Source of the DNA: an uncultured Verrucomicrobiales bacterium
GTDB lineage: Bacteria; Verrucomicrobiota; Verrucomicrobiia; Verrucomicrobiales; DEV007
Assembly (NCBI GenBank): GCA_938091905.1
Contig: CALKOM010000035.1
Coordinates: 1-53,334 of the forward strand
Length of the DNA: 53,334 bases
Reading direction: 5' to 3'
The notes under the pieces are model-generated. The model had not been told where the DNA came from. It worked only from the letters and a program-made list of their open reading frames with translations, and did not search any database. The position numbers and the translations under genes were made by a program. The first letter of the stretch is position 1; each line of letters begins with the position of its first letter. This document shows, piece after piece, positions 1,608-53,333 of this stretch.

Positions 1608-4600
1608 CTACTTCGCGGGCGAGAACTTAAAGTAGTCAATATCGCCGATGCTGTTCGAGGGGCCATTCTCGTCCATGATCGCGCGGATGGTGTGGATGCC
1701 TTTCTTGAGTTGGACACCTTTATGCGAGATGGTTTTGAGAATGGTCCAGCCGCCTGTGTCCGGGATGCGAATGGGCCCGGTGAGATCTTCGCCCTCAATT
1801 TCAAGGTGAAACAAGCCGCCCTGTTTGTCCGAGGCCACGGGCATGGTGATCTGATAGACTCCATCCTTGGCTACTTCAACCGTGTAGTGCAGCCACTCAC
1901 CCTTTCTCGTCCAGCCGATGCCGTGACCATTGGAGGCGTCGTCTCGCTTCTCGATATCGACCTGCGTGTTCTTCCGATAGTCGGTACCCTGGTTCTGTGG
2001 ATCGTTGTCATGATAGGCTAACTCAGCGGGTCCCTCGTCGTAGTGCTCGGCTTCGATGGTGCCTGGAATGGCGTGTGGCTTGCCTCCATAAGGGCCCGGC
2101 TTGGGAGCGACCTCGGTGCCTACATGGATAACTGACCAGTCGATGCCATCCTCGATCGGGCCGCTCTCTTTGGGGATGAGCCGAATGGTTCTGAGATCGA
2201 TCAAGGATCCTGCTTGAAAAGGGCCATCGCTCTTAGCGACCAGCCTATGAGTGCCTGCGACCAGGTTAAGGCTTCCCACCTGACCCCAGCGATAGTCGTC
2301 CCAAGTGCCTGTAGCCGGGACATCGGCACTGAGGGTCTTGTTGGCGACGGCGAAGAGGATGCGCCCGTCGTCGCTGCCAGCCTGGAGGGCCCAGTCGACC
2401 CAGAGGTCAAAGTCGCCGTCTTCGCTAAGGTGAAAGGTCCATTCGGCGCGATCCCGTTCGCTGCTCCAGAAACCGAGGTTTCGATAGCGCTGCTCAAAGA
2501 GGATGTTTGGGCCGTAGACTTCGGCGACTGAGGCTGGAAGCGTGACGGTGCTGTCGTTGGCCTGAGACATGAGCTTTGGTTCGTTGTTCTCAAACTTCTT
2601 TCGTGGTTCACCGGCGACTTGCAAGTAGGCGAGAAGATCGGTCATGGCGCTTACGGAAATCGACGCTTCAAGTCCCTCTGGCATGAGTGAGAATCCCATC
2701 GATTTGAGTGAGGCCAAGTCGGTGCGGGGTACTTGGTGACGCACGCCATCGATCCCGACAAGCGTGATGGACGCGCTGGTTTCCTCGACCAAGGCACCTG
2801 CCAGGGTTCTCTCATCCTTGATGGTGGCGACGAACTGCATCCAGTTCTCTTGAACCGATTGATTGGGATCGAGAATCGCCGTGAGGTAAGTTTGAGGGGT
2901 ACGCGTTGTGAGGGCGGCTATGTCAGGGCCGATGGCGTTGCCAATCCCGTCCAGGACATGGCAAGCAGCACAGTGGGTGGCGAAGACTTCGCGCCCTTTT
3001 TGCCGGTCACCCGCGATGGAAAGCGCGCTCGTGTAACGTTGGATGACCTCCGCACGATTGCGATTGGTTGCTCCGCCTAGCAGTGTCTCTGCTTGCTTCC
3101 GAATGGCTTCGTTCTCGTGGCGAAGCAGTCGCTGCCTTCTGGTCGCGTCAAGGGAGGCTCGCAGTTCACGATTCACCGCGAGTTCAGCAAAGAAGTTGGG
3201 CAGCTGATCTTCTCGTTTCAAGAAGCCGTCTACTAACGCTGATCGAACTTTAGGTCCATATTTGGGCCAATCAGCGAGCAATTGCCTGGTCATCGTGGGG
3301 TCATTCCCGTTGAGGAGCGCCTGGACGGCGGCAATTTGCAGCTCAACAGGCGTGCTCAGATCGAGGAGTTTCGTCAGTCGACTCCCATCGATTTCAGGAA
3401 ACTTATGTCCTGATGTCAGGAACGCCACCGAGGCGAGGCGATTTTCCAATGAGGCCCGCGAATCATCGATCGCCGTTCGCGCCGCCGCGAGCATGGGAGC
3501 CATTTCCTCTTTGAGTGACGCGAGGTTGTCGACGGTTGCCAGGATCTTGGAGGCGACCTCATATTGCCAGGCTTGGTAAGCGTCGTTGGCGTCTGCTTTC
3601 GCAACTCGAGCAAGAAGACGCGGCACGAGACGCCGGGCATCACTTCCCAAGAGTTCCATTAAGGCATTGGTGAGAGCCGCGGTGCTTGGCGTTCGCTCAG
3701 CCTCGAGCACGGTGAGGAGGACTTCATCGGGGAAACGAGCCGCAGACGTGAGGGCCGCCGCGCGAAGATAGGGGCGTTTCGCTTGAACCAAGAGAAAGGT
3801 TGCCAGGGCTTTGCCGGCTCGCGGATCGTTCCAGGAACCGAGAGACAGCGCCGCTTGTCGTTGCACGTGAGCGTCGTCGTCTTGGAGAAGATGCAGCGCG
3901 AGAAGCCCGAGGCGTTCTTCCTGACCAATGAGCCGTTCTCCCACACGCAGGGCATGAAGGCGCACGCCTGGATGGGAATCGTTGAGACCTGCTTGCACGT
4001 CGTCTGCGGTCAGCGTGTTGGTGTCTGCTAGGGCGCTCAGAGCTTGTAGCCGTGCCTGCGGCAGGGTGCTGGCGAGGACCTGACGCAGGGACGCCGTCGC
4101 CTCGCCCTGCTTGGCATCGTCCAACCAGGTGAGCATCATGTGCGCGGTATCGCGCTGCCACCCGTTTGGCGAATCTAGGGCTTTGGCGAGGACCGCTGGT
4201 TTCAGTCCTGCGAGTTTGACTGGGGTTCTTAGCGTCTGCCCCTTGGGATGGATTTTATAAATGCGTCCCCGATCTTCTCCTGCGCGGAGGCGACCATCGG
4301 CAATCATTTCGCGCTCGAGACGATCATCGATCCATTCAGGATGCTCGATGACGAGTCGGTAAAGATCCGCTACATAAAGTGCTCCGTCAGGACCCGTGCG
4401 GAGTGCGGTTGGGCGAAACCAGGAATCGCGACTGCGGAGAAACTCGCTTTGCGATTCGTCGGCCGCGCGCCTCGTTTGCATGAGGACACCATTCCATTCA
4501 ATGACATCGCGATGGATACAATTGTGAACCGGGCAGGAGAAGTAGACTGACGGTTCAATAAGATTATCAAAGAGTTGATCGCGATAAAACGTGTACCCGC

Positions 4601-23443: not shown

Positions 23444-23479
23444 CTCGCAATGGGTGGGGAGAGTCGTGTAGATTGGGGC

Positions 23480-26400
23480 ATGCGTGTTGTCTTGCTTCTG
23501 CTTCTCACACTTTCCGTAGTCACAGCTGAATTTCGGGCGGGTGCGAGTGCGGTCGATATTTCGCCACCGAAGCTTCCCGTCATTCAGAATGGTGGATTCA
23601 TAGAAAGCACGCTGAGTATCGTGCTGGATACGTTGCACGCGCGGGCGATTGTGTTGGATGATGGGAATAGCATGATTGCTATAGTGGTAGTGGATAGCTG
23701 CATGATGCCGCGAGAGTTGATCGACAAGGCGAAGGATCTGGCGGTGGCTGAAACGGGCATTCGCAAAGATCGCATCTTGGTGTCCGCGACGCATACACAC
23801 TCGGCTCCGAGTGTGATGAATCATACGCTGGGGGCGCGTGGGGATCCTCACTACATAGCGTTTCTGCCAGGGAAGATTGCGGAAGCGATTCGGCTGGCGA
23901 AGGCGAATCTCCAGCCGGCGCAGGTCGGTTCGGCCAAGATTGATGCGAGTGACCTCACGGCGAATCGTCGTTGGATCATGCACCCTGACAAGTTGTCGAA
24001 AGATCCGTTTGGCGCGCTGACGGTCAGGGCGAACATGCATCCGGGTCACAACAATCCGAATGCGATGGGGCCTTCCGGGCCGATCGATCCCTGGCTGTCG
24101 ATGCTCAGTATCCAAACGCGGGAGGGCAAGCCCCTGGCTCTTCTGGCCAACTTTTCGATGCATTATTTCAGTGGGCACGCAGGTGTGTCGTCAGATTACT
24201 TTGGCAGGTTTGCTAAGGAGATGGGGAAACGACTTGCCCCTGATGATTCGACCTTTGTAGCGGCTCTTTCGCAGGGCACAAGTGGGGATCTCTTCTGGGC
24301 GGATTACAGCCGTGACAAGCGTCGGGCGTGGAATCTTGAGGAATACACCAATCGACTGGCGGACAAGGCAATGACAGCGGTGGAGACGATAAGCCATCGA
24401 TCAGACCTACCGCTGAGGATGGCGGAGAAGCGGATAGAACTCGCACATCGGCAGCCGAGTGAGGAGCGTTTGCAATGGGCACAGAAACTTGTCGATGAAA
24501 TGGGTGATCGTGTGGTGGCAAAGAATCGGCCGGAGGTGTATGCGCAACAAGCGTTCTACCTCAAAGAGAACCCTTCTCGTGAAGTCGTGCTCCAATCGAT
24601 TGGCATTGGCGACCTGACGATCAATGCCCTGCCAAACGAAGTCTATGCCATCACGGGTCTGAAACTGAAGGCAGGCCAAGGTGAGCGGACAGTCTTCAAT
24701 GTATCTTTGGCGAATGGGGCTTCTGGCTACATCCCTCCGAAAGAACAGCATGCGTTGGGAGGTTACACCACGTGGCCGGCCCGCACGGCGGGACTTGAAG
24801 TGGGGGCTGAGAGGAGGATTGTGGAAGAGCTAGGCTTGCTTGCGCAACGTCCGCTTGATATGGTTGAACCTCCATCGATGTACTCGAAAGCGATTGGCGC
24901 TTCTCCGTCCCTCATCGATCAGTGGCGGATGGGTGAACTCGACTTAGGGGATGGCTTCTCATCCGGTGTGGCTCCTGGGGTGCCGGGCGTTTCCTCGTCA
25001 GCTTTTGGATCTGACTATCACAATCGGTGTGTCCACTTTGCGGGCGGCAAATTTACGCACACTCGGGAGTCTCCCACGGGAGACTATTCGCTGTCCTTGT
25101 GGTTTTGGAATGCGCTGCCTCTGGATGTGCGCGAGACTACGGGAATTCTCTTTGCCAGTGGCGGTGATCAAGTTTCGATTAGTCGGCAAGGTAAGCTGGT
25201 CGCTGGGTCACTTGATGGAGAGTCCGTGATCGATTCAAAGCGTTGGTATCATCTAGCGTTCGTGCGAAAAGGCGATGCGGTTAAAGTCTTCTTGAATGGC
25301 AGGCTGGAGATTGAAGGAGCGGGGCCCGCGCGGCAGGGTGGTCCTCTCTATTTCGCAGGCGACCGCGAGAATACGGCGAATTTCGAGGGAAAGATGGATG
25401 AGGTCGCTCTCTTTGATCGGGCCCTGACGGAAGCCAAAGTTTCTGAGCAGGTGCGGGTGGCGCAACTTCCCGAGTCGCCACCGCTTTCGCCCAAGCAGTC
25501 GATGAAGTCGATTCATGTAAGGGATGGCTTTGAGTTGGAGCTAGTTGCTGCTGAGCCGTTTGTTAGGGATCCTGTGGCCATCGATTGGGATGCGGACGGG
25601 AAGCTTTGGGTGTCGGAGATGGCGGACTATCCCTACGGCATCGATGGCAAGGGCAAAGCCGGTGGCCGCGTGCGCTGGTTGGAGGATGCGGATGCCAATG
25701 GAGTGTTTGAGAAATCTGTCTTGTTTCTAGATGGGCTTTCGTTTCCGACGAGCGTGATGCCTTGGCGTGATGGCGTGCTGATCACGGCGGCGCCTGACAT
25801 TCTCTTTGCGCGGGATACGGATGGCGATGGTCGCGCCGATGAGCAGGAGGTGTTGTTCACGGGATTCATCGAAGGGAACCAGCAACTGCGCGTGAACTCG
25901 CTGCGTTGGGGATTGGATGGGTGGATCTACGCGGCGAGTGGGGGGCACCATGCGGGCTTTGGGGTGAAGACGGAGATTACGAGCACGAAGACGGGCAAGA
26001 AGACTGCCCTTGGCAGTCGTGATTTTAAGTTTCGACCTGATAGCGGGGAGCTGGAAGCGCTTTCAGGTCCCTCACAGTATGGTCGTGTGCGCGATGACTG
26101 GGGGAACTGGTTTGGAGTGCAGAATTCGTATCCGCTCTGGCATTATGTCCTTCCGGATCACTATCTGAGGCGCAATGCTTTCCACCCGGCTCGGGATCCG
26201 CGTCGGCAATTGCGTGGGCAAGCGCCTCGGGTGTTTCCTAACAAGCCTCCTCAGAAACGTTTTCATGGGTTTGATCACGCCGGGCGTTACACCTCGGCTT
26301 GTGGGATTTCTATTTATCGGGATGTCTTGTTGTTTCCGTCTAGTCCGGAAAGGATGCATGCGTTTACTTGTGAGCCGTTTCACAATGTGGTGCAGCACCA

Positions 26401-28174
26401 TGTGTTAGATCGGGATGGCGTGACCTTCACAGCAGCGCGCGGCGATGATGGTGAGAAGGATTTCTTTGCTTCGGCGGATCGCTGGTGTCGGCCGGTAAGT
26501 ACGCGTACGGGGCCGGATGGGGCGCTTTATGTAGTCGACATGTATCGTTACATGATCGAGCACCCGGATTGGTTGCCTCAAGAAGGGCAAAATGAGCTTC
26601 GACCGTTTTATCGGCATGGAGAGGATCGCGGTAGGATCTATCGGATCATAGCGAAAGAAAGAGAAACCTTTGCTCGGATAGATTTCGATGATTTGGTTCG
26701 GGACATGGGAAGCTCGAATGGGCATGTTCGGGACACGGCACATCGATTGCTGATGGAGCGTGGTGATCGGAAGGCGGCGGAGGAGGTCGTCAAGACTCAG
26801 TGGATTCCTATGGCGAGGTTTCAGGCTTACAGCGCGTTGCAATCGTTGCCGGGAACGTTTCCTTGGCTAAGTGCTGCGGTGGATGACGATCCTAACGTGC
26901 GTCGACTTGCCGCACACGCTCCTGAGATGCTTGAGCGACTTTGTGAAGATGATGATGTGCGTGTGCGTTTGCAAGTGGCGCTGACGGCGGGCTCTGTTCC
27001 TGGTGAGGAGGCGGCGGCGGCTCTCATCAGTGTGGCGAAGCAAGATGGCAGTGATCCATTTGTCCATGCGGCGGTGATGAGTTCAGCAGACCTGCACTTC
27101 GACGCTTTGGTGGCCGCGTTGATCGATGATGAGTGCTTTGCGAAGGGGTTAGCTGTCATGGCCGCGCGGCGAGGCGGTGAGGGTTCCGAAGCGATGATAG
27201 AGACGTTCGTTTCTGATTCAGCTTCCAGCATGGAATTGTGCGCGGCGTGGTTGGACCATCTTGAGGAGCCCATTGTGGACCCTCGGTTGGAGGAGCTGTT
27301 TGGCAGGGCGCGCACGTTGGTCCAAGACACGACGACGGATGAAGCCCATCGGGTGGCGGCGATAGGGCTTTTGGCGCGTGGAGAAGGAGATGATGCGCCT
27401 GTGTTAGCGGCTTTGCTTAGCCCAATACATCCGCTCGCGTTGCAATTAGCGGCAACGGCTCGGTTGCGTACGCTGGGAGATGGAGCTTCGTTTGGGTATT
27501 TGCGAGAAGCGTTGTCGGCGAGTGAGCCGACGACGAGAGAGGCGATTCTGGCAGCGTTGCTTTCGCGGAAAGACTGGTGTGCTCGCCTGCTTGATGCGGT
27601 TGAGGAGGTGCCTGCATACGGTCGTCTGTTAGATGCGTCGCGTCGGCAACAGTTGAGTGGTCATCCAGACAAAGCTGTTTCTCAGCGCGCCAAGACGTTG
27701 TTTGCACAGTCGACGAGTAGTCGCTTGGACGTGGTGGCGGCGCTTCGTCCGGCACTGGCGTTGGATGGGGATACGGCGTCTGGGAAGGTGATCTTTGAAG
27801 CGCGCTGTGCTCTGTGTCATCAGGTTGGGGACGTGGGCAAGGCGATTGGGCCGGACTTGCGTTCGATCACGGACAAGTCGGCTGCTGGTTTGTTAGCGGC
27901 GATTGTCGATCCGAGTCGGAATGTGGAACCTAAGTATTTAAGCTATTTGCTAGAGTTAGAGGGTGGAGAGACGTTGTATGGACTGATCCGAGCGGAGACG
28001 GGAAATAGTCTGATTGTCGTGCAGCTGGATGGGAATGAGCGCACGATTCTTCGGTCAGCGGTGAAGACGCTTAAGAGTACGGACCGGTCGCTTATGCCTG
28101 ATGGCTTGGAAGCGGATCTTGGGGTGCAGGAGATGGTGGATCTGATTGAGTATGTGCAGTCGTTGAGGGAATGA
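23480..28174 (+). CDS. Secreted neutral-ceramidase-like plus LamG plus PVC-type heme-binding CxxCH protein
   Basis: Signal peptide MRVVLLLL; SATHTHSAP, NFSMHY, GTSGD and LANGASGYIP; LamG WYHLAFV...GKMDEVALFDRALT; AAEPFVRDPVAIDW; GPDGALYVVDMYR; CALCH...GPDL...SLMPDGLE. Confidence 0.88.
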   Translation: MRVVLLLLLTLSVVTAEFRAGASAVDISPPKLPVIQNGGFIESTLSIVLDTLHARAIVLDDGNSMIAIVVVDSCMMPRELIDKAKDLAVAETGIRKDRILVSATHTHSAPSVMNHTLGARGDPHYIAFLPGKIAEAIRLAKANLQPAQVGSAKIDASDLTANRRWIMHPDKLSKDPFGALTVRANMHPGHNNPNAMGPSGPIDPWLSMLSIQTREGKPLALLANFSMHYFSGHAGVSSDYFGRFAKEMGKRLAPDDSTFVAALSQGTSGDLFWADYSRDKRRAWNLEEYTNRLADKAMTAVETISHRSDLPLRMAEKRIELAHRQPSEERLQWAQKLVDEMGDRVVAKNRPEVYAQQAFYLKENPSREVVLQSIGIGDLTINALPNEVYAITGLKLKAGQGERTVFNVSLANGASGYIPPKEQHALGGYTTWPARTAGLEVGAERRIVEELGLLAQRPLDMVEPPSMYSKAIGASPSLIDQWRMGELDLGDGFSSGVAPGVPGVSSSAFGSDYHNRCVHFAGGKFTHTRESPTGDYSLSLWFWNALPLDVRETTGILFASGGDQVSISRQGKLVAGSLDGESVIDSKRWYHLAFVRKGDAVKVFLNGRLEIEGAGPARQGGPLYFAGDRENTANFEGKMDEVALFDRALTEAKVSEQVRVAQLPESPPLSPKQSMKSIHVRDGFELELVAAEPFVRDPVAIDWDADGKLWVSEMADYPYGIDGKGKAGGRVRWLEDADANGVFEKSVLFLDGLSFPTSVMPWRDGVLITAAPDILFARDTDGDGRADEQEVLFTGFIEGNQQLRVNSLRWGLDGWIYAASGGHHAGFGVKTEITSTKTGKKTALGSRDFKFRPDSGELEALSGPSQYGRVRDDWGNWFGVQNSYPLWHYVLPDHYLRRNAFHPARDPRRQLRGQAPRVFPNKPPQKRFHGFDHAGRYTSACGISIYRDVLLFPSSPERMHAFTCEPFHNVVQHHVLDRDGVTFTAARGDDGEKDFFASADRWCRPVSTRTGPDGALYVVDMYRYMIEHPDWLPQEGQNELRPFYRHGEDRGRIYRIIAKERETFARIDFDDLVRDMGSSNGHVRDTAHRLLMERGDRKAAEEVVKTQWIPMARFQAYSALQSLPGTFPWLSAAVDDDPNVRRLAAHAPEMLERLCEDDDVRVRLQVALTAGSVPGEEAAAALISVAKQDGSDPFVHAAVMSSADLHFDALVAALIDDECFAKGLAVMAARRGGEGSEAMIETFVSDSASSMELCAAWLDHLEEPIVDPRLEELFGRARTLVQDTTTDEAHRVAAIGLLARGEGDDAPVLAALLSPIHPLALQLAATARLRTLGDGASFGYLREALSASEPTTREAILAALLSRKDWCARLLDAVEEVPAYGRLLDASRRQQLSGHPDKAVSQRAKTLFAQSTSSRLDVVAALRPALALDGDTASGKVIFEARCALCHQVGDVGKAIGPDLRSITDKSAAGLLAAIVDPSRNVEPKYLSYLLELEGGETLYGLIRAETGNSLIVVQLDGNERTILRSAVKTLKSTDRSLMPDGLEADLGVQEMVDLIEYVQSLRE

Positions 28175-32612: not shown

Positions 32613-33293
32613 TCATGCCACTTCATCTCCCGATGGATGGTTCCGAATCTCGACTAATCTATCAGCATTTCCAATCGACTCTTGAATTACCAGTTCCGCA
32701 TTCGGGCCATCGTTGGTCATCAGCCTCCACATGGATTCCTCTCGCGACATCTTCATCACCTGATGATGCCGTTTCAAGACGCGCCGTTTGCATTCTTCGA
32801 GAGTAACATAGAGAAACCACCCTTCGTCAAACACCTCGCTTTGGAGCCGATTCCAAGGATGTTCGTTTAACAACAAGTAGTTTCCCTCCACGATTACGAT
32901 CCTCTTTCCCGGTTTCAGGGAGATACGACCCTCTACTGGGTCGCGTTCTTTGTGATCAAAATCTGGGAAGTGGCCACTCCCAGTTCGACGTGCTTCGATC
33001 AGATCATCGACTAACTTTCGTGAGTTAAATGTGAATGGTGCCCCCCTTCTCTCATGGGCTTGCTCAGGGTTCTCCATCTCGTTCAGTTCAGAACAAGAGT
33101 AGTGATAGCCGTCCATCGGAATGATATCAACCTGGTCACGGAGAGCTTCTTTTATCTTACCTGCGACGGTGCTCTTTCCGCTCCCTGGCCCCCCAGCAAG
33201 CCCGATCCAGTGCTGGGAACTCCCAGACAATAAATCATACTTTAAGGAAAGCTCGTCAATGAGCTCGCTGTGGTTTTTTATTTCTTTCTGCAT
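32613..33293 (-). CDS. P-loop small-molecule kinase (uridine kinase/PRK/pantothenate kinase-like)
   Basis: IGLAGGPGSGKST, PMDGYH, RRGAPFTF, DFDH..RDP and IVEGNYLLL. Confidence 0.88.
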   Translation of the reverse strand: MQKEIKNHSELIDELSLKYDLLSGSSQHWIGLAGGPGSGKSTVAGKIKEALRDQVDIIPMDGYHYSCSELNEMENPEQAHERRGAPFTFNSRKLVDDLIEARRTGSGHFPDFDHKERDPVEGRISLKPGKRIVIVEGNYLLLNEHPWNRLQSEVFDEGWFLYVTLEECKRRVLKRHHQVMKMSREESMWRLMTNDGPNAELVIQESIGNADRLVEIRNHPSGDEVA

Positions 33294-33360: not shown

Positions 33361-34800
33361 TCAATCGTCCTCTGGCCAGCCTGCGCTGTTGTCGGTAAGC
33401 TCGTCAGGGTTCTGAGTGACCGTAGGGTGTAGTTCATAGGGGTCTGGAAAGGCGACCATACGATCTGCCCAGCGGACGCAGTCCCAGTCAATGATGTAGT
33501 TTTCATCTAAAGGGTCAATCTGTCTCATGAACCGGGAACGCGCGAGAGCTCGGGTGTCCGGAGGCGGCTCTGTTAGGCATCGCTTGACCGCCGCTTCAAG
33601 GTTTAGCGACCAATGGCCATCTTTAGCGAGCGGGTGGGCAAGGCTGCGCTCTGGGGAAATGTGGTGGTATTCTAAATCCTGAGCTTGGAGCCAGTCGTTG
33701 TTCAGATCGATTCGCTCGGCTTCGCAGAAGTGTTGGAAGAGGTAGCGCTTGGTGACCCAATCGAGGATGCCGACCATGCCGGTAGGGTCATTGCTAGCGA
33801 AGGCCTCGTTGGCTCGCTTCCATAGATCCAGAAGGGCATCGGTTTCGGTGTCGCGCCCCGTGAAGTGTTGAGCGGCTCGTTCGCGATAGATTTCTAACAC
33901 GTCAACCGCATTGCAGGTTTCAGCGGGGTTCATAAATACCTGCCAGGGGCCTTCGGCTTGGTAGGATATCTGTTTTAGCGTGCTCACGGGTTCGTGTAGG
34001 CGGAGCATCGGTAAGTCGTCGATCTCTAAGAGGTCGAGAATAAGAGCCGTGGTGCCGATTTTAAGAAAGGCTGCTCCTGGTAGTACATTTGTGTCGCCGT
34101 GGAGTAGGTGCAGACGCCGATAGAGGGTAGGATCGGCGAGGGGTTCGTCACGTGTGTTGATGATCGCCCGGTTCCCCTGGACCCACCTGAAGAAATCGTT
34201 CTCGACGTAGTCTGCTCGTTGAGTGATTTGGAACCCATCGAAGTTGTCGAGTAGAGGCTCGCGTTCTTGGCGCATGAGTTGCCGCTGAGTTTCTAGCCCG
34301 CCCACACGGCCTGCCCCTGTGTAGAGGCTGCGGAGTGTGAGAAAGGTGAGCAATGAAAAGATGGCTTCGTCGGAGGAAACGGCTTGTCGATCAAGGGAGT
34401 AGTTCTCGTGACATCCAAAGGTTGCTCCCGTGTAGTGGTCGATGTTGTTGCGGATGATACTGACAGTGTCGTCGAGTTCCAACTCGTGGAGCGCTTGAGC
34501 AAGCAGGTGATCATTCGCCCGATCATAGTGCACGACCTCAAGGAAACTGGAACACTCAGGCGTGCACATCTCCAGATGTCCCATGTCTTCATACATGCGA
34601 CCACCATTGAATAGAAAGCCGCCGTTGCCGGGTGGTTCGTCCCAGTCACGGTGATGAACATCGATTAATCCATGGCGCTGGTTCTCAAAAAACCAGTCGC
34701 GCAGACGACCGATCACTTGATGCATCGGCAGGTTATCCTCGACTAGGCAACCATACTCGGTTTCCAGACCAATGAGACGCCTGCGCGACGAGTTAGGCAT
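33361..34800 (-). CDS. pafA: Pup/UBact-protein ligase (PafA family)
   Basis: GLETEYG, GGFLFNGGRMYEDMGHLE..TPE, GCHENY, TQRAD, INTRDEPLADP..YRRLH and DLEYH; last gene of the proteasome operon. Confidence 0.93.
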   Translation of the reverse strand: MPNSSRRRLIGLETEYGCLVEDNLPMHQVIGRLRDWFFENQRHGLIDVHHRDWDEPPGNGGFLFNGGRMYEDMGHLEMCTPECSSFLEVVHYDRANDHLLAQALHELELDDTVSIIRNNIDHYTGATFGCHENYSLDRQAVSSDEAIFSLLTFLTLRSLYTGAGRVGGLETQRQLMRQEREPLLDNFDGFQITQRADYVENDFFRWVQGNRAIINTRDEPLADPTLYRRLHLLHGDTNVLPGAAFLKIGTTALILDLLEIDDLPMLRLHEPVSTLKQISYQAEGPWQVFMNPAETCNAVDVLEIYRERAAQHFTGRDTETDALLDLWKRANEAFASNDPTGMVGILDWVTKRYLFQHFCEAERIDLNNDWLQAQDLEYHHISPERSLAHPLAKDGHWSLNLEAAVKRCLTEPPPDTRALARSRFMRQIDPLDENYIIDWDCVRWADRMVAFPDPYELHPTVTQNPDELTDNSAGWPEDD

Positions 34801-35509
34801 TGCCTGCGAGGGCCTGATATTTCACTTTGTTCGGTGTCTTGCGGTCTAGCAAAGCCATTTCTAGGACGCGTCCGCCAAGATCGACAGTTTCGAGATTGGC
34901 ACATTTGATGGAGTTTCCAATGCGTTCCCCATTGGTCATGGCTTGCCACATAGCTAACAAGAGACCTAATACGCGATTGCGGTTGGAATGAGGCTTGAGG
35001 CGCGTGCGCAGCCAATCCTTGGCTTGCGTGGCGGCGGCTGTGTTGGATGACACAACGGCGAGGCCATCGTGAACGACCCCAAAGTTGCCATCATGGCTGA
35101 ACTCCATGAGGACATCGTCTTGAGGGGTCTCCCCGACTTCAGCGAAGACACCCTCCACAATGAGTGGAGGCTGGAAGACGCTCTCGAAGCTATTTTTAAG
35201 TGCAGGGCTGAGTGAGTAGCTCATGAGTCGTCGCAAGGTGACGTCCTGCGGAGATCGGTTGAAGCCTTCTAGATGCGCCGCTTCAATAGCGGTTTGACGA
35301 ATCTTCTCGATATCGACCGGGTTGCCAAGTGCGGCGATCGCGTGCCTGTCATAGATCTCAAAGACCTTTGACTGACCCAAGCCGACGCCTACGAGCAAGA
35401 TTCCTTCTGGGCGAGAAAGGGCAAAGACAGGAGTGGCATGCGAAAGTTGGTCGCGAACATACTCGCCGCGGTCATGGATGGCTTCGAGCCATTGAAATAG
35501 TTCGCTCAT
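34793..35509 (-). CDS. prcA: 20S proteasome alpha subunit
   Basis: SKVFEIYDRHAIAALG..DIEKIR...GFNRSPQDVT; likely start ATG 35509 overlaps the prcB stop (ATGA). Confidence 0.9.
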   Translation of the reverse strand: MSELFQWLEAIHDRGEYVRDQLSHATPVFALSRPEGILLVGVGLGQSKVFEIYDRHAIAALGNPVDIEKIRQTAIEAAHLEGFNRSPQDVTLRRLMSYSLSPALKNSFESVFQPPLIVEGVFAEVGETPQDDVLMEFSHDGNFGVVHDGLAVVSSNTAAATQAKDWLRTRLKPHSNRNRVLGLLLAMWQAMTNGERIGNSIKCANLETVDLGGRVLEMALLDRKTPNKVKYQALAGNA

Positions 35510-36306
35510 GCCTTCTTCTCCTTGCCCCACCATTGAGCTTGTTCTTCATCGGTGACCTGGCGGACCTCGCCAGGACGCAAACTATAGACCGAGGCGTAGC
35601 GATTTAGGCGTGGGTCCACGCCGCCTGTGGCCGAGTCAAACTGCGCTGCCGTGGTGAGCAAACGCAGGGCAAAGGTGGTGGCTTGTTTCAGATCCATCTT
35701 GTGCGGGGCCGGGCTGCCCCAACGTTCTTGGAAGGCGAGAATGCTTTTCACATTTCCTGCGCCGGATCCTGACGATGCAAAGCTAGTGGTTTCAAATTGA
35801 GCACCTAACGGATCATAGAAATGAATCGTGGGGGCTGGCTTAGGCAATGAGTAATCGACTCCGGCGAAGATAGGTACGACTGTACCGATGCCCTGCATCA
35901 CCATGGGGATGTTCTCTTTAAGCAGTTGTGAGAGTGCGCGGGTCTTCGCTTGCAAGCTCATGGTTTGCAGCTGGCTCCTTCGGTAAAACTCGAAGCTCGT
36001 TTCTAGTGTGCGTGCCATTTCCAAGGCGACGGCGGGAGAGCCAGCGATGGCCATGAGGGAATCGCTGTCGAGCGGGAGGATCTTATCGACACGATCCGAG
36101 AAGATCAGATTGTCTGCGGTCGCGCGGTGATCGCCAGCCATGAGCACGCCTTGGCGATAATGAAAGGCCAGGACAGTTGTGGCCTCGATTTGATGACCGG
36201 CGAGTGCCTGGGAATCACTTGTTAGAACACGTGAAAGTGGATGCTCGGGAAGGAGGCTGAGGAAGTCGCCATCCATCCGTGGTTGAGGTGCGGACGGTGA
36301 TTTCAT
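35506..36306 (-). CDS. prcB: 20S proteasome beta subunit with propeptide
   Basis: The mature chain starts TTVLAF; counting from that Thr gives Asp17 and Lys33. Also SGSG and DSATGG. Confidence 0.95.
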   Translation of the reverse strand: MKSPSAPQPRMDGDFLSLLPEHPLSRVLTSDSQALAGHQIEATTVLAFHYRQGVLMAGDHRATADNLIFSDRVDKILPLDSDSLMAIAGSPAVALEMARTLETSFEFYRRSQLQTMSLQAKTRALSQLLKENIPMVMQGIGTVVPIFAGVDYSLPKPAPTIHFYDPLGAQFETTSFASSGSGAGNVKSILAFQERWGSPAPHKMDLKQATTFALRLLTTAAQFDSATGGVDPRLNRYASVYSLRPGEVRQVTDEEQAQWWGKEKKA

Positions 36307-36485
36307 TCTCCAGTTCGCTGGCGATAGCGCCGTGCCTGATCGGGATCCACTTTGCGCATGCGCTCGAGCAAATCGTCTGTATTCGGCTTCTCCACCTTGG
36401 GTGTGGATGGTCCCTCCCCTTCGTCATCCCCACCGCCGCCTGGTGCCGGTGCGGGAGGCCGCGTTCTTCTGGCTGATTCAGGCAT
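36303..36485 (-). CDS. ubact: Ubiquitin-like modifier UBact (Pup analogue)
   Basis: 60 aa with a disordered Pro/Gly/acidic N-terminus, then LLERMRKVDPDQARRYRQRTGE ending in R[T/S]G[E/Q]; lies between dop and prcB. Confidence 0.93.
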   Translation of the reverse strand: MPESARRTRPPAPAPGGGGDDEGEGPSTPKVEKPNTDDLLERMRKVDPDQARRYRQRTGE

Positions 36486-36494
36486 GAGAGGACT

Positions 36495-38027
36495 CTAAAC
36501 AGATTTGAAGGGCTTTGCAAAGAGTAGCGGCGAAAGATCTGCCACCCGACGGGCTTTTTCAATGACGGCCACGGCCTCCTCGACAGCCTCGGGAGTGAAG
36601 AGTCGGCGTAGATCTAGCTCGAGTGCGGCGGTCTTGTCCCGTAGACGCACGTGGTCCCATTGGGCGGCTTCAACGTGTTGCCCAAAGCGTTCGATACAGA
36701 GACCGCGGACGCGGGCGCGTGTGTCGGTGGGCGGCGGAAATTGTCCCTCCGATAGCGTGGTGACCCCGGGAGGTTGTCTGAACTGGCCTTGATCGCGTAG
36801 ACCATAGTAAAGCCCTTCGCTTTCGTCTAACAGATGATACGAAAGGTCCAAACTGATGAGCCATGGGTCTTCCTCGCCAAGATTCTCCGCATCGCGGAAC
36901 GTAGACACGATGTCGAGCTTGGCTGTCCAGTCTAACCGGTCTACGGTGGTTTCCGGTCCCTTCTCCAGATCATCTAGGATTTGTTCCCAATCATCTAACT
37001 GAAACCCATCGGTTGGTTCGGGAAGGACTTCCCGAACCAAGGACAAGTATTGGCGTTGAATCTCAATGGCGGTTGTGGGAGAACCGTCCTTTAGATCGCA
37101 ATCCCAGTACCAACTTGGATCGCGGGATATTTCGCGCATGGTGCCGACAGGATCGTCAAGTTGAGGCAGGCGAGCTGGATCGACTTGATTTAGCATGGCA
37201 AGCACGGAGGCCGTGGAGCCGACTTTCAGATAGGTGGCATAGGGGGACATGTTTGCATCGCCCACAATGACATGGAAACGCCTCCATGTTTCGGGATCGG
37301 CGTGGGGTTCGTCGCGCGTGTTGATGAGTGGCCGCTTCTGCATGGTGTCCACGCTTTCCATAACCGAGAAGAAGTCGCTCCGCTGTGCGATTTGAAAGCC
37401 TGGACCGACATAGCGATCTTCGTCTTCCCACCCAAATTTACCTGCTCCACAGAAGATCTGACGCGTCGCGAGGAAAGCGCGCATGCCTCGACTGACGTTC
37501 TCCCAAGCGAGGTCGCGTGGGAGAAGATAGTTCTCGTGGCAGCCATAGCTGTGCCCTTGGAAGTCGGTATTGTTCTTGTAAAGTCGCACGCGGCCTTCGT
37601 CGCGTTCTGCAGTCTTTGCGGAAAGCTCCTCGGCGCATTCCGTGACGAGCCGATCGCCTAACTGATCTTGCTCGACGAGGTCCGCGATCGTTCGACATTC
37701 TGGCGTGCAGTACTCTGGGTGGGCGTGATCATTGTAGAAGCGAGCGCCGTTCTTGAGAGCGAGATCGCTCTTGATCTCTGAGAAACTCAGAGGGCGTGCC
37801 GCATCTTGAGCGAAATAGTTCGCCTCATCTGTATCTTGACGCAGGGCGTCGACTCGGAACCCACGCGCATCGACGTGCGGATCCTCATAGGAATAATCCC
37901 AACGCATGCGCACACCTGATTGTGTCGCCGCTTGGACTAGCGCAATGGATTCGGCCACGACGTCATAGTCGGTTCTAGGCCTTTCTCGGCTGATGCCATA
38001 CTCAGTTTCGAGTCCGTAAAGGATCAT
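36495..38027 (-). CDS. dop: Dop-family deamidase/depupylase
   Basis: GLETEYG, NGARFYNDHAHPEY.TPE, KNNTD..GHSYGCHENY, QRSDFF and TMQKRPLINTRDEPHAD...RRFHVIVGDANMS. Confidence 0.93.
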   Translation of the reverse strand: MILYGLETEYGISRERPRTDYDVVAESIALVQAATQSGVRMRWDYSYEDPHVDARGFRVDALRQDTDEANYFAQDAARPLSFSEIKSDLALKNGARFYNDHAHPEYCTPECRTIADLVEQDQLGDRLVTECAEELSAKTAERDEGRVRLYKNNTDFQGHSYGCHENYLLPRDLAWENVSRGMRAFLATRQIFCGAGKFGWEDEDRYVGPGFQIAQRSDFFSVMESVDTMQKRPLINTRDEPHADPETWRRFHVIVGDANMSPYATYLKVGSTASVLAMLNQVDPARLPQLDDPVGTMREISRDPSWYWDCDLKDGSPTTAIEIQRQYLSLVREVLPEPTDGFQLDDWEQILDDLEKGPETTVDRLDWTAKLDIVSTFRDAENLGEEDPWLISLDLSYHLLDESEGLYYGLRDQGQFRQPPGVTTLSEGQFPPPTDTRARVRGLCIERFGQHVEAAQWDHVRLRDKTAALELDLRRLFTPEAVEEAVAVIEKARRVADLSPLLFAKPFKSV

Positions 38028-38073: not shown

Positions 38074-38811
38074 CTAACTCGTCAGCGCTTCAAAGAGATA
38101 ACGGATCTCCTCGCGGATCTGTTCTTCGGTCGGATTGTCGAGAAGATCGGCCACCTCATCCTTCAAGAGCTTACCGTAGCGGCTGCGCAGTCGATGTGCG
38201 GCCACGCGGACGGCGTTCTCGGTCATTTCAAAGCGCTTGGCCAGATCGGTGTAGAAATGACTTTCTGGGCGACCTTGGATGATTTCTTGCAAGGAATTGA
38301 AGAAAGCAGCCTTTCCTAGCTGATCGTACTCGAGGTGCAATTTCTCGAGCACGGATTCGACGACCGTGACGGCCCATTCTCGATCGAATAGGCGCTCGGG
38401 CGATGCTTCACTCGTCGGCAGGGGCTGGGCGAAACGGGCCTCAGCGACCTCCTGATCGAGTGGAATCCGCGTCACATGCCCACCGCGGCGCTGGGTGTGG
38501 TTTCGTAAGTGATTGCTGATGAGCTGATTCTTCACCGCCTTGAGAACGTAGCTGCGGAATTTGCCTCGTTCGCGATCAAGTTGGCGTAGGGTACCTTCGG
38601 CAAAGAACCGCCCAAAGAAGTCTTGAGTCAGGTCCTCGGCATCCGCGGGTGATTGACCAGACCGGCGCACATAGGCGTAAACAGGATACCAGTAGCGTCG
38701 GCAGAGCTCATCCATCGCATCTTTGGCACTGACATCGTTCCCACCCGCGCGAGAGATAAGACTCCAGCGAGTTTCTTCAAAACGTTGCTGTTCGGGGACC
38801 GGCGGGGGCAT
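38074..38811 (-). CDS. ECF sigma factor (sigma70 regions 2 and 4)
   Basis: Likely start MPPP at 38811; TRWSLI, YWYPVYAYVRR, DAEDLTQDFF, GKFRSYV, RRGG and AVRVAAHRLR. Confidence 0.9.
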   Translation of the reverse strand: MPPPVPEQQRFEETRWSLISRAGGNDVSAKDAMDELCRRYWYPVYAYVRRSGQSPADAEDLTQDFFGRFFAEGTLRQLDRERGKFRSYVLKAVKNQLISNHLRNHTQRRGGHVTRIPLDQEVAEARFAQPLPTSEASPERLFDREWAVTVVESVLEKLHLEYDQLGKAAFFNSLQEIIQGRPESHFYTDLAKRFEMTENAVRVAAHRLRSRYGKLLKDEVADLLDNPTEEQIREEIRYLFEALTS

Positions 38812-38923
38812 TGCTACGGGTAGGGGGCACTGGAGGCTAGCATGGTTGGTAAATACTGCCGAGCGATTTCCGTAGCGTCTCGAGCTTGCATTCACACCGA
38901 GAAAGAGTTCCGATTCACCAGCA

Positions 38924-40903
38924 ATGGGTACGGCAGCTCCAGAATTCGGGAAAACGTGCCCTAAGTGTGGGTTTGCGTGGGAACGCCCTGGGTTGGCGAT
39001 CTGCTCGCGCTGCGTTCTCTCGACTCAGTTCGAAGGCGGCGAGGAAGATGGGGTGTGTTTGCCAGGAGAGGGCAGGTTCGAAGGCGAACGCGCTCATTTG
39101 GTGCCGGGTTATGTGATAGGAGAGGTGTTGGGAAGAGGGGGATGTGGTACCGTATACAAGGCTACCCAGACCGCGTTAGATCGACCTGTAGCGATCAAGT
39201 TTCTTCGTCAAGACCGTGCGGTTTCTCGACAGGGGTTGGAAAGGCTTCAAGGAGAATCTGTGAGTCTCGCGCAGTTGCAGCACCCACACATTCTCTCAGT
39301 CATCGATTCCGGAGAGATTAGCGGGGAAAGTTATATTGTGATGGAGTATGCGTCGGGAGGTGATTTGCGTGGGATGATGCGTGACGGTCCGCTACCTCAT
39401 GAGAAGGTGGTGAGCGTGATCAAAGAAGCGGCCTCTGCGTTGTCCCAGGCTCATTCTGAAGGCTTTGTTCATCGGGATATCAAGCCAGAGAATCTCTTGT
39501 TGGATCGTGATGGCCGTGTGCGCGTGGCCGACTTTGGGCTGGCGGCATCTTCCGAGGGATCGGCGCATCTGGGGCTAGCTGAATCGTCCGTGGGTACGCC
39601 GGTTTACATGGCACCGGAACAGCGCGGGAAGGCAAATGCTGAGCAAGTGGACAAACGGGCGGACATCTACAGTCTTGGGTGCCTCGCCTACGAGATGCTT
39701 ATGGGTGGACTTCCAAGCAATGATCCGAGTCCACCTTCAGCTAGGTCCGGCATTCCCAAAGCGGTGGATGCCCCGGTGTTCAAGGCGATGGCGGTGTCAC
39801 CTGGGGAGCGCTACGAGACCGCCGATGTGTTTGCCATCGCGCTTGAAGACGCCTTGCTCAGCAGAACGGCAGGCCCGCAGATTCTGTGGGCAGTGGGCAC
39901 TGGCTTATTGGCGCTCGTGCTGGTAGTCGCTTGGGGTGTTGCGAAACCCATGAGAATGGGAGAGCCCTCTCTGCCGTTGAAAATGGTGTCGGTGCCTCCA
40001 AAGCTCTACTGGTCAGAAGCCGAGATTGCTGAACAAAGGGATAGGTTGATGCAACAGTTGAAGGCTGCACCAAAGCCGGTCGGTGTTTCAGTGAGCGAAA
40101 TTGTAGCGTGCTATGATAGAGGGCTTGATGATACCTCTGCTTCTAGCGGTGAACTTGTCTGGGGGAAAGAGGGGGCTGTTCGTCTTGTTCAGCGCTACCT
40201 GCAGTCGAAGAGGGCTGAAGGTGAAGAGGCGTGGTTTGATCGTGAGGTGGACTACTTGTATGAAGGCGTCGTGTCGCGAGAGAGGGTTCGTGAGACCCTG
40301 ACGAATGATCAGTCGATCTGGCCGCAGCGTTGGCAGTATCTTCAAGAATCTCCCAAGGTTACGGAAACTCCGGAGGGGCTCATTGAGGTGCGTGTTCGCT
40401 ATGTTTATCTTGCGTTGAATGCGAGGCGTTTGCGCAAATGGACACTGCAGCGCTGTTACGGTATCAAAAAAGGGTCTAACGGAAAACCTGTGATCTCGGC
40501 CTTTCTCAATGACGAGGTGCGTGAGAGAACGCCTCTCACGAAAGCGGAGCGGCACTTTCTGCTCATGCATTTCTGTGAGAATTACTATAAAGCTGGGTGT
40601 GCGCGTACAGATTTAGATCAGATCAATTTCCTCAGTGACCCGACGTATTATATTGATGCGGATCGGTCGCTGACCGAGATCAATCAATCCTTCGAGCACT
40701 ACTATTTGATCCGTCCGAATCGAAAGCTAACCTTGTTAATCATGCCGGAAGTTGAGCGCTTGAGTGAGGATCTTTACCTGGCCGCTTGTCGCTTTGAAGC
40801 TAGTCGAGGAGAAGGTAAAGGATCTGCTGAAGTGACGGACATCATCCAGATCCTCTTCACAGACGATGAGCCTCACATGGTCTACGTGAAGCCGATCAAC
40901 TAG
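38924..40903 (+). CDS. Membrane Ser/Thr protein kinase with extracytoplasmic domain
   Basis: N-terminal CPKC..CSRC; LGRGGCGTVY, VAIK, HRDIKPEN, DFG, GTPVYMAPE and DIYSLG; TM helix ILWAVGTGLLALVLVVAWGVA. Confidence 0.93.
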   Translation: MGTAAPEFGKTCPKCGFAWERPGLAICSRCVLSTQFEGGEEDGVCLPGEGRFEGERAHLVPGYVIGEVLGRGGCGTVYKATQTALDRPVAIKFLRQDRAVSRQGLERLQGESVSLAQLQHPHILSVIDSGEISGESYIVMEYASGGDLRGMMRDGPLPHEKVVSVIKEAASALSQAHSEGFVHRDIKPENLLLDRDGRVRVADFGLAASSEGSAHLGLAESSVGTPVYMAPEQRGKANAEQVDKRADIYSLGCLAYEMLMGGLPSNDPSPPSARSGIPKAVDAPVFKAMAVSPGERYETADVFAIALEDALLSRTAGPQILWAVGTGLLALVLVVAWGVAKPMRMGEPSLPLKMVSVPPKLYWSEAEIAEQRDRLMQQLKAAPKPVGVSVSEIVACYDRGLDDTSASSGELVWGKEGAVRLVQRYLQSKRAEGEEAWFDREVDYLYEGVVSRERVRETLTNDQSIWPQRWQYLQESPKVTETPEGLIEVRVRYVYLALNARRLRKWTLQRCYGIKKGSNGKPVISAFLNDEVRERTPLTKAERHFLLMHFCENYYKAGCARTDLDQINFLSDPTYYIDADRSLTEINQSFEHYYLIRPNRKLTLLIMPEVERLSEDLYLAACRFEASRGEGKGSAEVTDIIQILFTDDEPHMVYVKPIN

Positions 40904-52313: not shown

Positions 52314-53333
52314 CTAATCAAAGCGCGTGAAGCTATCGAGGTACTTGCCTGTGCCATCGATCGCTTCGAACTGTTGGCGGCCTTGATAGAGTTTGACGCG
52401 GATGAGGTGGTTGAGATCTTCGGCGCGAGCGATGTATTTTAGTGGGCGTAGCTTGGCCCAATCGACTTTGCGCACACCGACGCCCCAAGCGCCGTCGCCC
52501 ATGTAGGTGACTCCACTAATGTCTACTTGATTGTGCTTGATCGGCATGGTGCGCTTGTAAACGTGGTGGTCGTTCTCGAAGGCCACATCGACACCGTACT
52601 TTTCAAACAAGGGGACCCATTCTTTGCGGATCTCTTGCATGTCATCCTTGATCAAGGTCCCATACGCTGGGCGATGGTAACAGGCAAAGAGGTGAGGGAA
52701 GTTCGTTCGTTGTTTTAGAGTGCTCTCTAGCCACTCCGTTTGGGCTTTGGGAGTTTGGGTGTGATAGGAATCGAGGCAAGCGATGCTCAAGTAATTGCCG
52801 AAGTCGATGACGTAGTTCGACACCTCTTGTGGAAGCGGGAATAAGCTGTAATAGAACTTCGCGACCTTCCTCGGATCGAAATCTTTACGATCAGCTTCTT
52901 TCACTTCATTGAGATTCTGCGTTTTGATACACTCGTGATTGCCAATGACGGCGATCATAGGAATGAGGTAGTCATCAGCGGTCACGGCGTTGTCATGCCA
53001 GGAATCGATCCACTCATACCAGCGATCGACTTCTTTGCCGTTAGCGTATGCCAGGTCGCCGCCTAAGAGGGCAAAGAGAGGGCGTTCCAGGCCGGCACGG
53101 CGGTTCATCTCATCGAGCAACTTACGCTCGTAGTACATATCTCCGCCGGTGACAAACGTGACGGGATCCGTTAGGCGGTCGGGAGCAGTTCTAAAGAACC
53201 ACTTACGATCGCGCAGCCGCTGACTGCCCTCCCGTATGTCGAAGACATAGGGCGTATCCGGGTTCAGGTCTTTGAGAATGACCCGGTGAATGACGCGACC
53301 GCTATCGGCAAAGGCATGCGTCGTGGGCGTGGC
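52314..53333 (-). CDS. Purple acid phosphatase-family metallophosphoesterase (5'-partial)
   Basis: The frame is open to the window end: HRVILKDLNPDTPY...FRTAP (FN3-like), GGD, GDLAY, GNHE, YHRP and ENDHH. Confidence 0.9.
   Translation of the reverse strand, partial: ATPTTHAFADSGRVIHRVILKDLNPDTPYVFDIREGSQRLRDRKWFFRTAPDRLTDPVTFVTGGDMYYERKLLDEMNRRAGLERPLFALLGGDLAYANGKEVDRWYEWIDSWHDNAVTADDYLIPMIAVIGNHECIKTQNLNEVKEADRKDFDPRKVAKFYYSLFPLPQEVSNYVIDFGNYLSIACLDSYHTQTPKAQTEWLESTLKQRTNFPHLFACYHRPAYGTLIKDDMQEIRKEWVPLFEKYGVDVAFENDHHVYKRTMPIKHNQVDISGVTYMGDGAWGVGVRKVDWAKLRPLKYIARAEDLNHLIRVKLYQGRQQFEAIDGTGKYLDSFTRFD

Follow-up and report, generated by a model that had tools for sequence, protein, structure and literature searches.

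The UBact conjugation-proteasome system of Gram-negative bacteria was reportedly described in 2017 by Lehmann, Udasin, Livneh, and Ciechanover (BBRC 483:946), from whom the name UBact comes, and Verrucomicrobia are said to be among the phyla that they named for it. The actinobacterial Pup system, for example that of M. tuberculosis, comprises mpa, dop, pup, prcB, prcA, and pafA. Some actinobacteria encode Pup variants that already end in Glu (PupE), and Dop acts there only as a depupylase. The part of Iyer et al. 2008 (PMC2588565) drawn on here already lists the verrucomicrobium Methylacidiphilum and a G-[EQ] end. The stretch of DNA analyzed here (53,334 nucleotides, hereafter the window) opens contig C35 in the assembly of a marine Verrucomicrobiales bacterium (G000; 6.19 Mb, 212 contigs, 95% complete), and it carries an operon that very probably encodes a working UBact-type, Pup-like system for protein tagging and degradation. 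The locus is an ordinary new case of the UBact system already described, for which Pfam and NCBIfam models exist. The case for a working system draws on homology, conserved catalytic residues, a gene order with coupled translation, purifying selection, and an unlinked unfoldase gene that co-occurs with the operon.

Five minus-strand open reading frames (ORFs) between positions 38027 and 33361 follow the order dop-ubact-prcB-prcA-pafA (Table 1), as an earlier note on this DNA had claimed. The same order is found in the described UBact system, and both the protein families and the gene order are those of the actinobacterial Pup system. Read base by base, the dop stop codon (TAG at 36497-36495) is followed by a 9-nt spacer and then by the ubact ATG at 36485, whereas ubact and prcB have an ATGA at 36306-36303 in common. 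A second ATGA overlap, claimed for prcB and prcA, requires prcA to start at the ATG at 35509, just 5' of which lies the sequence AAGGAGA. The longest prcA ORF begins at 35533, 24 nt further 5', and would make this overlap 28 nt. Finally, the 8-nt overlap reported between prcA and the pafA-like gene could be read at 34800-34793. All five ORFs are intact, with their catalytic residues kept and their starts coupled. A promoter and terminator scan yielded nothing exceeding shuffled sequences.

Table 1. Genes of the UBact-type operon, with their positions in the window
Gene	Position	Strand	Length (aa)	Description
dop-like	38027..36495	minus	510	Pup_ligase family with Dop-loop; predicted UBact deconjugase
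ubact	36485..36303	minus	60	small tag, end RYRQRTGE
prcB	36306..35506	minus	266	20S proteasome beta subunit, 42-aa propeptide
prcA	35509..34793 or 35533..34793	minus	238 or 246	divergent 20S alpha subunit
pafA-like	34800..33361	minus	479	Pup_ligase family without full Dop-loop; predicted UBact ligase

This arrangement is shared by related bacteria. A scan of one genome per species, from which the best 80 of 703 matching stretches were used, showed that the closest loci belong to metagenome-assembled genomes (MAGs) of Verrucomicrobiales, one of them being a contig of G026, a relative from the same order, which agrees with the host type (Planctomycetes-Verrucomicrobia-Chlamydiae, or PVC) that had been proposed. 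The gene order is kept in five of six related loci (G002, G003, G004, G005, and G026), and the sixth, G012, has dop on another contig. In other phyla, the same order is found with mpa in front. When compared with the orthologs of G003, the closest relative, all five genes have dN/dS values of 0.03-0.07 (0.06 for ubact), although these values are rough because dS is near 1. Short contigs from RNA libraries (four libraries, three studies) fall on all five genes with 95-100% identity, but they give only a weak hint, given that such libraries may also contain DNA. Near-identical DNA is also found in seawater and marine metagenomes from several studies. Overall, the operon is complete, conserved, and probably expressed.

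All of the biochemical activities proposed here, and the choice of the paralog that serves as ligase, are carried over from the mycobacterial Pup system. By that analogy, the 60-residue UBact already ends in Glu and would enter the pathway with no deamidation. The pafA-like enzyme would activate the side-chain carboxylate of this terminal Glu with ATP and attach it to lysine residues of target proteins. Recognition and unfolding of the tagged proteins, and their delivery to the 20S core, would fall to an Mpa-like AAA+ unfoldase whose gene lies on another contig. This core would be formed by PrcA and PrcB, and loss of the 42-residue PrcB propeptide would expose Thr1. The dop-like enzyme would remove the tag again. 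The likeness to the actinobacterial Pup system extends to the proposed joining through a C-terminal Glu, the Dop-loop, and the beta-subunit residues Thr1, Asp17, and Lys33 together with a propeptide.

The identity of the tag places the operon in the UBact type, as the earlier note had proposed. The 60-residue protein exceeds both curated cut-offs, with 82.1 bits against PF20513 (UBact; cut-off 27.8, E 2e-23) and 84.3 bits against NF033388 (ubiq_like_UBact; cut-off 35). A Pfam scan at E <= 0.01 returned UBact as its sole family, and the Pup model was not matched. Similarly, the window tag ends in T-G-E (...RYRQRTGE, so the reported RTGE end is confirmed) and does not have the G-G-[EQ] end of Pup-type loci, which sets it in a different family from Pup. 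A tag gene located between dop and prcB whose product ends in Q-R-[TS]-G-[EQ] was seen in 20 of 20 distinct UBact loci, a pattern that the window sequence YRQRTGE fits, and the C-terminal half of UBact is conserved across these loci.

A tag that ends in Glu would already be ready for ligation, and it follows, by the Pup paradigm, that no deamidation would be needed and that Dop would be left as a deconjugase. Ligation of such a tag has a parallel in PupE, which serves as a ligase substrate in the portion of PMC7947786 drawn on here. As in the actinobacteria that carry PupE, the window tag is encoded with its Glu and Dop is kept, but the tag family differs and the Glu and Gln forms alternate even within the genus of the window. 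Among the 20 distinct loci, 11 tags end in Glu and nine in Gln, and the Gln-ended forms include those of G002 (same genus) and L025 (the closest named MAG). Freedom from deamidation would therefore be a property of the window allele and not of UBact systems at large.

Of the two proteasome subunits, PrcB matches PF00227 (Proteasome) with 76.2 bits (E 3e-21) and TIGR03690 (20S_bact_beta) with 136.8 bits, the latter under the cut-off of 191.9. Its T43 aligns to position 1 of the mature Rhodococcus beta chain (1q5q_H) and so corresponds to Thr1, which makes D59 Asp17, K75 Lys33, and the propeptide 42 aa long. The catalytic residues that had been called intact are indeed in place, and the GSG motif is present. 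An Ala precedes Thr1; this was considered as an oddity and rejected, since several actinobacterial beta subunits have Ala there too. PrcA found no match in a Pfam scan and reached 71.5 bits (E 7e-20) against TIGR03691 (20S_bact_alpha), under its cut-off of 139.05, whereas phmmer paired it with the alpha chains of Rhodococcus and M. tuberculosis at E 2e-9 to 5e-8. By these scores, the homology of PrcA to 20S alpha subunits is clear despite the missed cut-off. A variation on the core genes occurs in the Nitrospinaceae locus L046 (8380-11024), which has two beta genes, one on either side of ubact (order dop, prcB-like, ..., ubact, prcB); where others read RATAG, the first of the two reads RIMAG.

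The dop-like and pafA-like proteins both match PF03136 (Pup_ligase) over profile positions 1-440, with 466.9 bits (E 9e-140) and 340.1 bits (E 3e-101), respectively. The motifs GxExEYG, NGxRxYxD..HxE, GCHENY, INTRDEP, RRxH, and GDxN are invariant in both. According to the sections of PMC7947786 used here, Dop is distinguished from PafA by a Dop-loop of about 40 residues and by the sequence around the catalytic Asp, which is V-D-H-A in Dop versus L-D-V-G-S, with one inserted residue, in PafA. Nine alpha-loop residues and a few other positions also separate the two enzymes (Table 1 of the same source). The upstream enzyme of the window aligns end to end with Acidothermus Dop 4b0r (E 5e-98, residues 4-460), and this alignment reveals the Dop-loop motif WDY..EDP..DARGF together with N-D100-H-A-H-P-E. 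Its N99-D100-H101-A102 stretch is free of the PafA insertion, and Ser27, Val31, and Pro109 are also present. Among NCBIfam models, it scores 410.2 bits with TIGR03688 (Dop; cut-off 492.3) versus 315.5 bits with TIGR03686 (PafA), both under the equivalog cut-offs. We also compiled 11 discriminating columns, each at least 85% conserved within 14 Pup-type PafA and within 14 Pup-type Dop sequences and differing between the two sets, and the upstream enzyme matches Dop at seven of these and PafA at one.

The downstream enzyme is harder to place. A Dop-loop with the conserved WDY..DARGF is found in the upstream paralog only, which supports the names that the earlier note had given to the two genes. 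At the Dop-loop site the pafA-like protein is about 40 residues shorter than its paralog, and the stretch that it keeps there is of half length, shorter than in Dop but longer than in actinobacterial PafA. Its catalytic motif, E71-D72-M73-G74-H75, keeps the Gly and is one residue short of PafA. Its D438 stands at a PafA-specific Asp position, it has Phe at two PafA-specific positions, and the consensus of its clade matches PafA at four and Dop at one of the 11 discriminating columns. The pafA-like protein would thus be the UBact ligase by elimination and on a few PafA-like residues, rather than by orthology.

A structure prediction is in line with this assignment. The predicted complex of the pafA-like protein (43-row alignment) with UBact residues 24-60 scored 0.84, versus 0.00 for the best control; 116 of 157 solved complexes attained this mark, as did two of 215 mismatched pairs. 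Contact agreement between runs was at least 92%, the predicted local distance difference test (pLDDT) score of the partner was at least 71, and the C-terminus of the tag was placed at active-site residues 15-19, 72-75, and 120-131. Because the complex of Pup and PafA (4BJR) has already been solved, the pass may reflect likeness to that structure and does not prove binding.

Several observations weigh against the interpretation of this locus as a working UBact system with the downstream enzyme as its ligase. No experimental paper on UBact was found in the literature searched. The dop-like, pafA-like, PrcB, and PrcA proteins all fall below the NCBIfam equivalog cut-offs, which for these families were trained on actinobacteria and which, unlike the actinobacterial Pup proteins, no window gene attains. 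The pafA-like protein itself matches PafA at just one of the 11 discriminating columns (and Dop at one), it has no extra residue inserted beside the catalytic Asp, and a reading of its pairwise alignment against Table 1 of PMC7947786 finds 0 of nine PafA alpha-loop residues; in these respects the predicted ligase of the window departs from that of the actinobacterial system. In AlphaFold2 (AF2) models with pLDDT scores of 86.6 (pafA-like) and 91.2 (dop-like), no helix is predicted in the alpha-loop region of the pafA-like protein (pLDDT about 60), and both paralogs have the same strand-loop pattern there. Foldseek fits the pafA-like model equally to Dop and PafA (template modeling scores of 0.80 versus 0.77), and the fold search was set aside as a discriminator because it does not separate them. 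An insertion after GAGRVG was likewise dropped as a character shared with PafA, since it occurs in C. glutamicum PafA but not in the actinobacterial PafAs of the sample. Two further points on the same side concern the unfoldase. The C-terminal half of this protein was sought in the host assembly, and only generic AAA+ matches with 35-40% identity were found. Moreover, the GQYL tail, by which Mpa docks on the mycobacterial core, occurs in 0 of 25 UBact-type unfoldases, versus 49 of 50 Pup-type ones, and for unfoldases that have no such tail a coupling to the 20S core cannot be taken for granted.

The alternative that survives these data best accepts the same system and the same function but derives the pafA-like ligase from a separate duplication of a Dop-like ancestor inside the UBact lineage, where it would have become a ligase independently. 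We hold this to be possible, although the odds are on the other side. For phylogenetic analysis, 143 family matches were reduced to 74 rows, namely every UBact-type ORF with a length of 430 aa or more, seven loci that have Dop only and are of Chthoniobacterales or Limisphaerales type, 16 of 28 Pup-type loci with both paralogs, and the single divergent copy of G009 as the outgroup. Neither fragments nor the duplicate L026 were used. A quick maximum likelihood tree recovered four clades, with support in the Shimodaira-Hasegawa-like approximate likelihood ratio test (SH-aLRT) of 92 for Pup-type PafA, 91 for Pup-type Dop, 100 for UBact-type PafA-like, and 88 for UBact-type Dop-like proteins. The tree pairs both UBact-type clades (SH-aLRT 89) and then adds Pup-type Dop (86), giving the topology (outgroup,(Pup PafA,(Pup Dop,(UBact PafA-like, UBact Dop-like)))) that a separate duplication would produce. 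When the outgroup and the long Chloroflexota rows were removed (69 rows), the same split was found, but with a support of only 55.

Other features of the pafA-like protein point in the same direction. The Dop and PafA models of NCBIfam tie on it (TIGR03688 248.9 bits versus TIGR03686 243.0 bits, both under their cut-offs, that of PafA being 551.3), and phmmer gives a higher score to Acidothermus Dop (194.7 bits, residues 62-429) than to C. glutamicum PafA (174.8 bits, residues 7-441). The half-length remnant at the Dop-loop site and the missing PafA insertion and alpha-loop residues are also what such an origin might leave behind. Against it, a single clade for both PafA types costs 7.17 log-likelihood units and is not rejected by the approximately unbiased (AU) test (p-AU 0.304). 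The pafA-like clade is the most divergent of the family, being 34% identical to each of the three other clades on 423 shared columns, compared with 41% identity between the two Dop clades and 40.5% between Pup-type PafA and Pup-type Dop; long-branch effects are therefore likely. The same tag would be bound by both paralogs, which could draw them together in the tree, and the clade consensus favors PafA over Dop at the discriminating columns, the PafA-specific Asp (D438) included.

The earlier note would take a placement of both enzymes in the same subfamily as a refutation, and the trees do not clear this point cleanly: the two enzymes fall into separate supported clades, but the best tree makes these clades sisters (SH-aLRT 55-89). 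Orthology of the pafA-like protein with actinobacterial PafA is neither shown nor rejected by these trees (p-AU 0.30). A tentative extension of the separate-duplication scenario is that the UBact ligase is not a PafA phylogenetically and has a different active-site surround, with neither the PafA insertion nor the PafA alpha-loop residues but with a clade-specific insert after GAGRVG. If this were true, then UBact, with its Tyr-free unfoldase tail and divergent alpha ring, would be a parallel machine rather than a transferred copy of the actinobacterial one.

Some members of the tree are unusual in their own right. In the Chloroflexota loci L074 and L101, both paralogs lie on long branches within the UBact-type clades, and the small ORF after dop ends in ...PQPGGE; it has no match to the UBact profile and does not end as Pup usually does. 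The outgroup protein (G009:C113, L105, 4701-6440) is a lone, very divergent Pup_ligase homolog of 579 aa from the same family, with no UBact match and with an insertion of about 150 residues that is largely hydrophobic. A membrane-inserted Pup_ligase type is predicted in the part of Iyer et al. 2008 (PMC2588565) drawn on here, and the G009 homolog looks like this type.

The first reading of the sequence missed that the operon has no unfoldase gene, and no Mpa/ARC gene lies within the window. The host does have an Mpa-like gene on contig C125 (G000:C125), of which the N-terminal 337 aa are present before the contig end cuts it off. This fragment scores 231.8 bits against TIGR03689 (positions 11-300), and it contains OB domains, a coiled coil, and the beginning of the AAA module. 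In G003, G005, G012, and G026 the orthologs are full-length (559-695 aa), and that of G003 (560 aa, with OB_N, OB_C, and AAA domains) is 91% identical to the fragment. Contig C125 was considered as a neighbor of the window and rejected, given that the last window gene (Metallophos, 52314-53138) has no similarity to the phosphoesterase encoded after mpa in those of G003 and G005. Likewise, no Mpa-like C-terminus runs off the window end.

The position of this gene and the tail of its product raise the alternative that tagging and the 20S core are not coupled via the unlinked ATPase, in which case tagging would be mainly regulatory or another activator would feed the core. This alternative, which we judge improbable, starts from the loss by the ATPase of its place in the operon and of its GQYL docking tail. 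In the Verrucomicrobiales loci examined (window, G003, G005, G012, G026, and L025), mpa is unlinked, whereas it lies directly before dop in other UBact-type loci, e.g., L027, L028, L043, and L044. A UBact-type locus was defined for these counts as one with a UBact match or a Dop of the UBact-type clade. A penultimate aromatic residue is absent from all 25 UBact-type ATPases, whereas 49 of 50 Pup-type unfoldases, all but that of a Luteococcus locus, have a Tyr-Leu or Tyr-Phe end. In addition, the alpha subunit is very divergent.

Yet the Tyr-free tail is itself conserved, with V, I, A, S, or T followed by I or V in 24 of 25 proteins, which fits a different docking motif rather than a loss. The four orthologs from relatives end in NAI, HAI, GAI, and VSI, and among 21 further UBact-type unfoldases none has a penultimate Tyr or Phe and 20 end in I or V, with one Nitrospirae record ending in AIE. 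A small or hydrophobic residue followed by I or V thus takes the place of the GQYL end of the Pup-type proteins. Furthermore, the ATPase is confined to UBact-holding genomes: among 41 related genomes, UBact is present in seven, including five of six of the genus, and the unfoldase occurs in five of these seven holders and in 0 of the 34 others. It is also the first gene of the core operon in most other UBact lineages. Both types of tail can be seen among Candidatus Poribacteria MAGs, different ones of which carry one or the other type of locus: L037, L040, and L041 are UBact-type loci (tag ...RTGE, unfoldase end VI) and L068, L070, and L085 are Pup-type loci (tag ...RGGQ, unfoldase end YL).

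The weakest alternative, under which the locus was acquired horizontally, is now in decay, and no longer works in its host, could account for the patchy distribution (UBact in seven of 41 relatives and in 10 of 301 genomes of an even phylum sample), for G001 (same genus, 95% complete) having none of the parts, for the in-frame TGA in pafA and the unfoldase not found in G002, and for the incomplete unfoldase gene of the host assembly, but it is very improbable in view of the five intact ORFs with catalytic residues and coupled starts, the low dN/dS values, an unfoldase gene that is cut by a contig end and not by mutation, and, more weakly, the RNA-library contigs on all five genes. The system that we take to be working in the window is accordingly rare and patchy in the phylum but not new there. 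In G002 (G002:C66, L018, 11133-12548), the pafA-like gene has one in-frame TGA that divides it into contiguous parts of 389 and 81 aa, UBact is Gln-ended, and the Mpa-like gene was not found in a genome that is 94% complete. This pafA-like gene may be a decaying copy, or the TGA may reflect a sequencing error or read-through.

UBact-proteasome operons have been in print since 2008/2017, and the gene find by itself adds little. Its value is as material, because, in the literature searched, no part of the UBact branch appears to have been tested at the bench. There are three differences from the mycobacterial system that can be tested, namely a ligase that is without the residues shown to make PafA a ligase, a conserved Tyr-free unfoldase tail that replaces GQYL, and a natural alternation of Glu and Gln at the tag end among close relatives. 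The unlinked Tyr-free unfoldase, the alternation of tag ends, and a ligase assignment made without orthology are additions to the first reading.

The genes that flank the operon were considered as parts of the system and dropped. Encoded on the strand of dop, a gene for an extracytoplasmic function (ECF)-type sigma factor (38074-38895, minus strand) ends 46 nt ahead of it. A gene for a Ser/Thr kinase of 659 aa (38924-40903, plus strand) is divergent from the sigma factor gene. Both are kept beside the operon in G003 alone. Downstream, a gene of the nucleoside-kinase family (32613-33293) is found in 0 of six related loci. An empty-site or island test in G001, for which two flank proteins were searched, found an ortholog of the Ser/Thr kinase in G003 alone and no match for the flank sulfatase at E <= 1e-50 in any of four genomes. 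In G003, the Ser/Thr kinase gene next to the operon has an in-frame TAG. The operon of G003 (G003:C66, L015) also has a 2.4-kb insert with three genes between prcA and pafA (1660-4125). Two of these are ORFs of 307 and 312 aa with no function assigned, and the third is a 153-aa ORF on the opposite strand that resembles a CYTH domain by eye.

Some related loci contain only part of the system or carry unexpected names. Dop-like genes occur in loci L029-L036, L038, L039, L047, and L050 of Chthoniobacterales, Udaeobacter, and Limisphaerales, where UBact, prcB, prcA, and pafA-like genes were all absent downstream (up to 8 kb, although some loci end sooner). The remaining genes of the system lie elsewhere or are missing there. 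In most of these loci, but not in L029-L031 or L034, mpa lies just before the Dop-like gene. Complete verrucomicrobial-type UBact operons, with Dop 56-57% identical to that of the window, occur in L028 and L042, whose records are titled as Chitinophaga pinensis and Klebsiella pneumoniae MAGs; these titles look like mislabels.

Elsewhere in the window, two giant proteins (1608-7262, minus strand, 1884 aa; 23450-28174, plus strand, 1574 aa) combine DUF7133 with a cytochrome c domain. The 1884-aa protein also has carbohydrate-binding modules, and the 1574-aa protein has a laminin-G-type lectin domain. The window further encodes two sulfatases, a BNR sialidase-like protein, and a 3-keto-disaccharide hydrolase, a content of glycan-degrading genes that is usual for marine Verrucomicrobiota.

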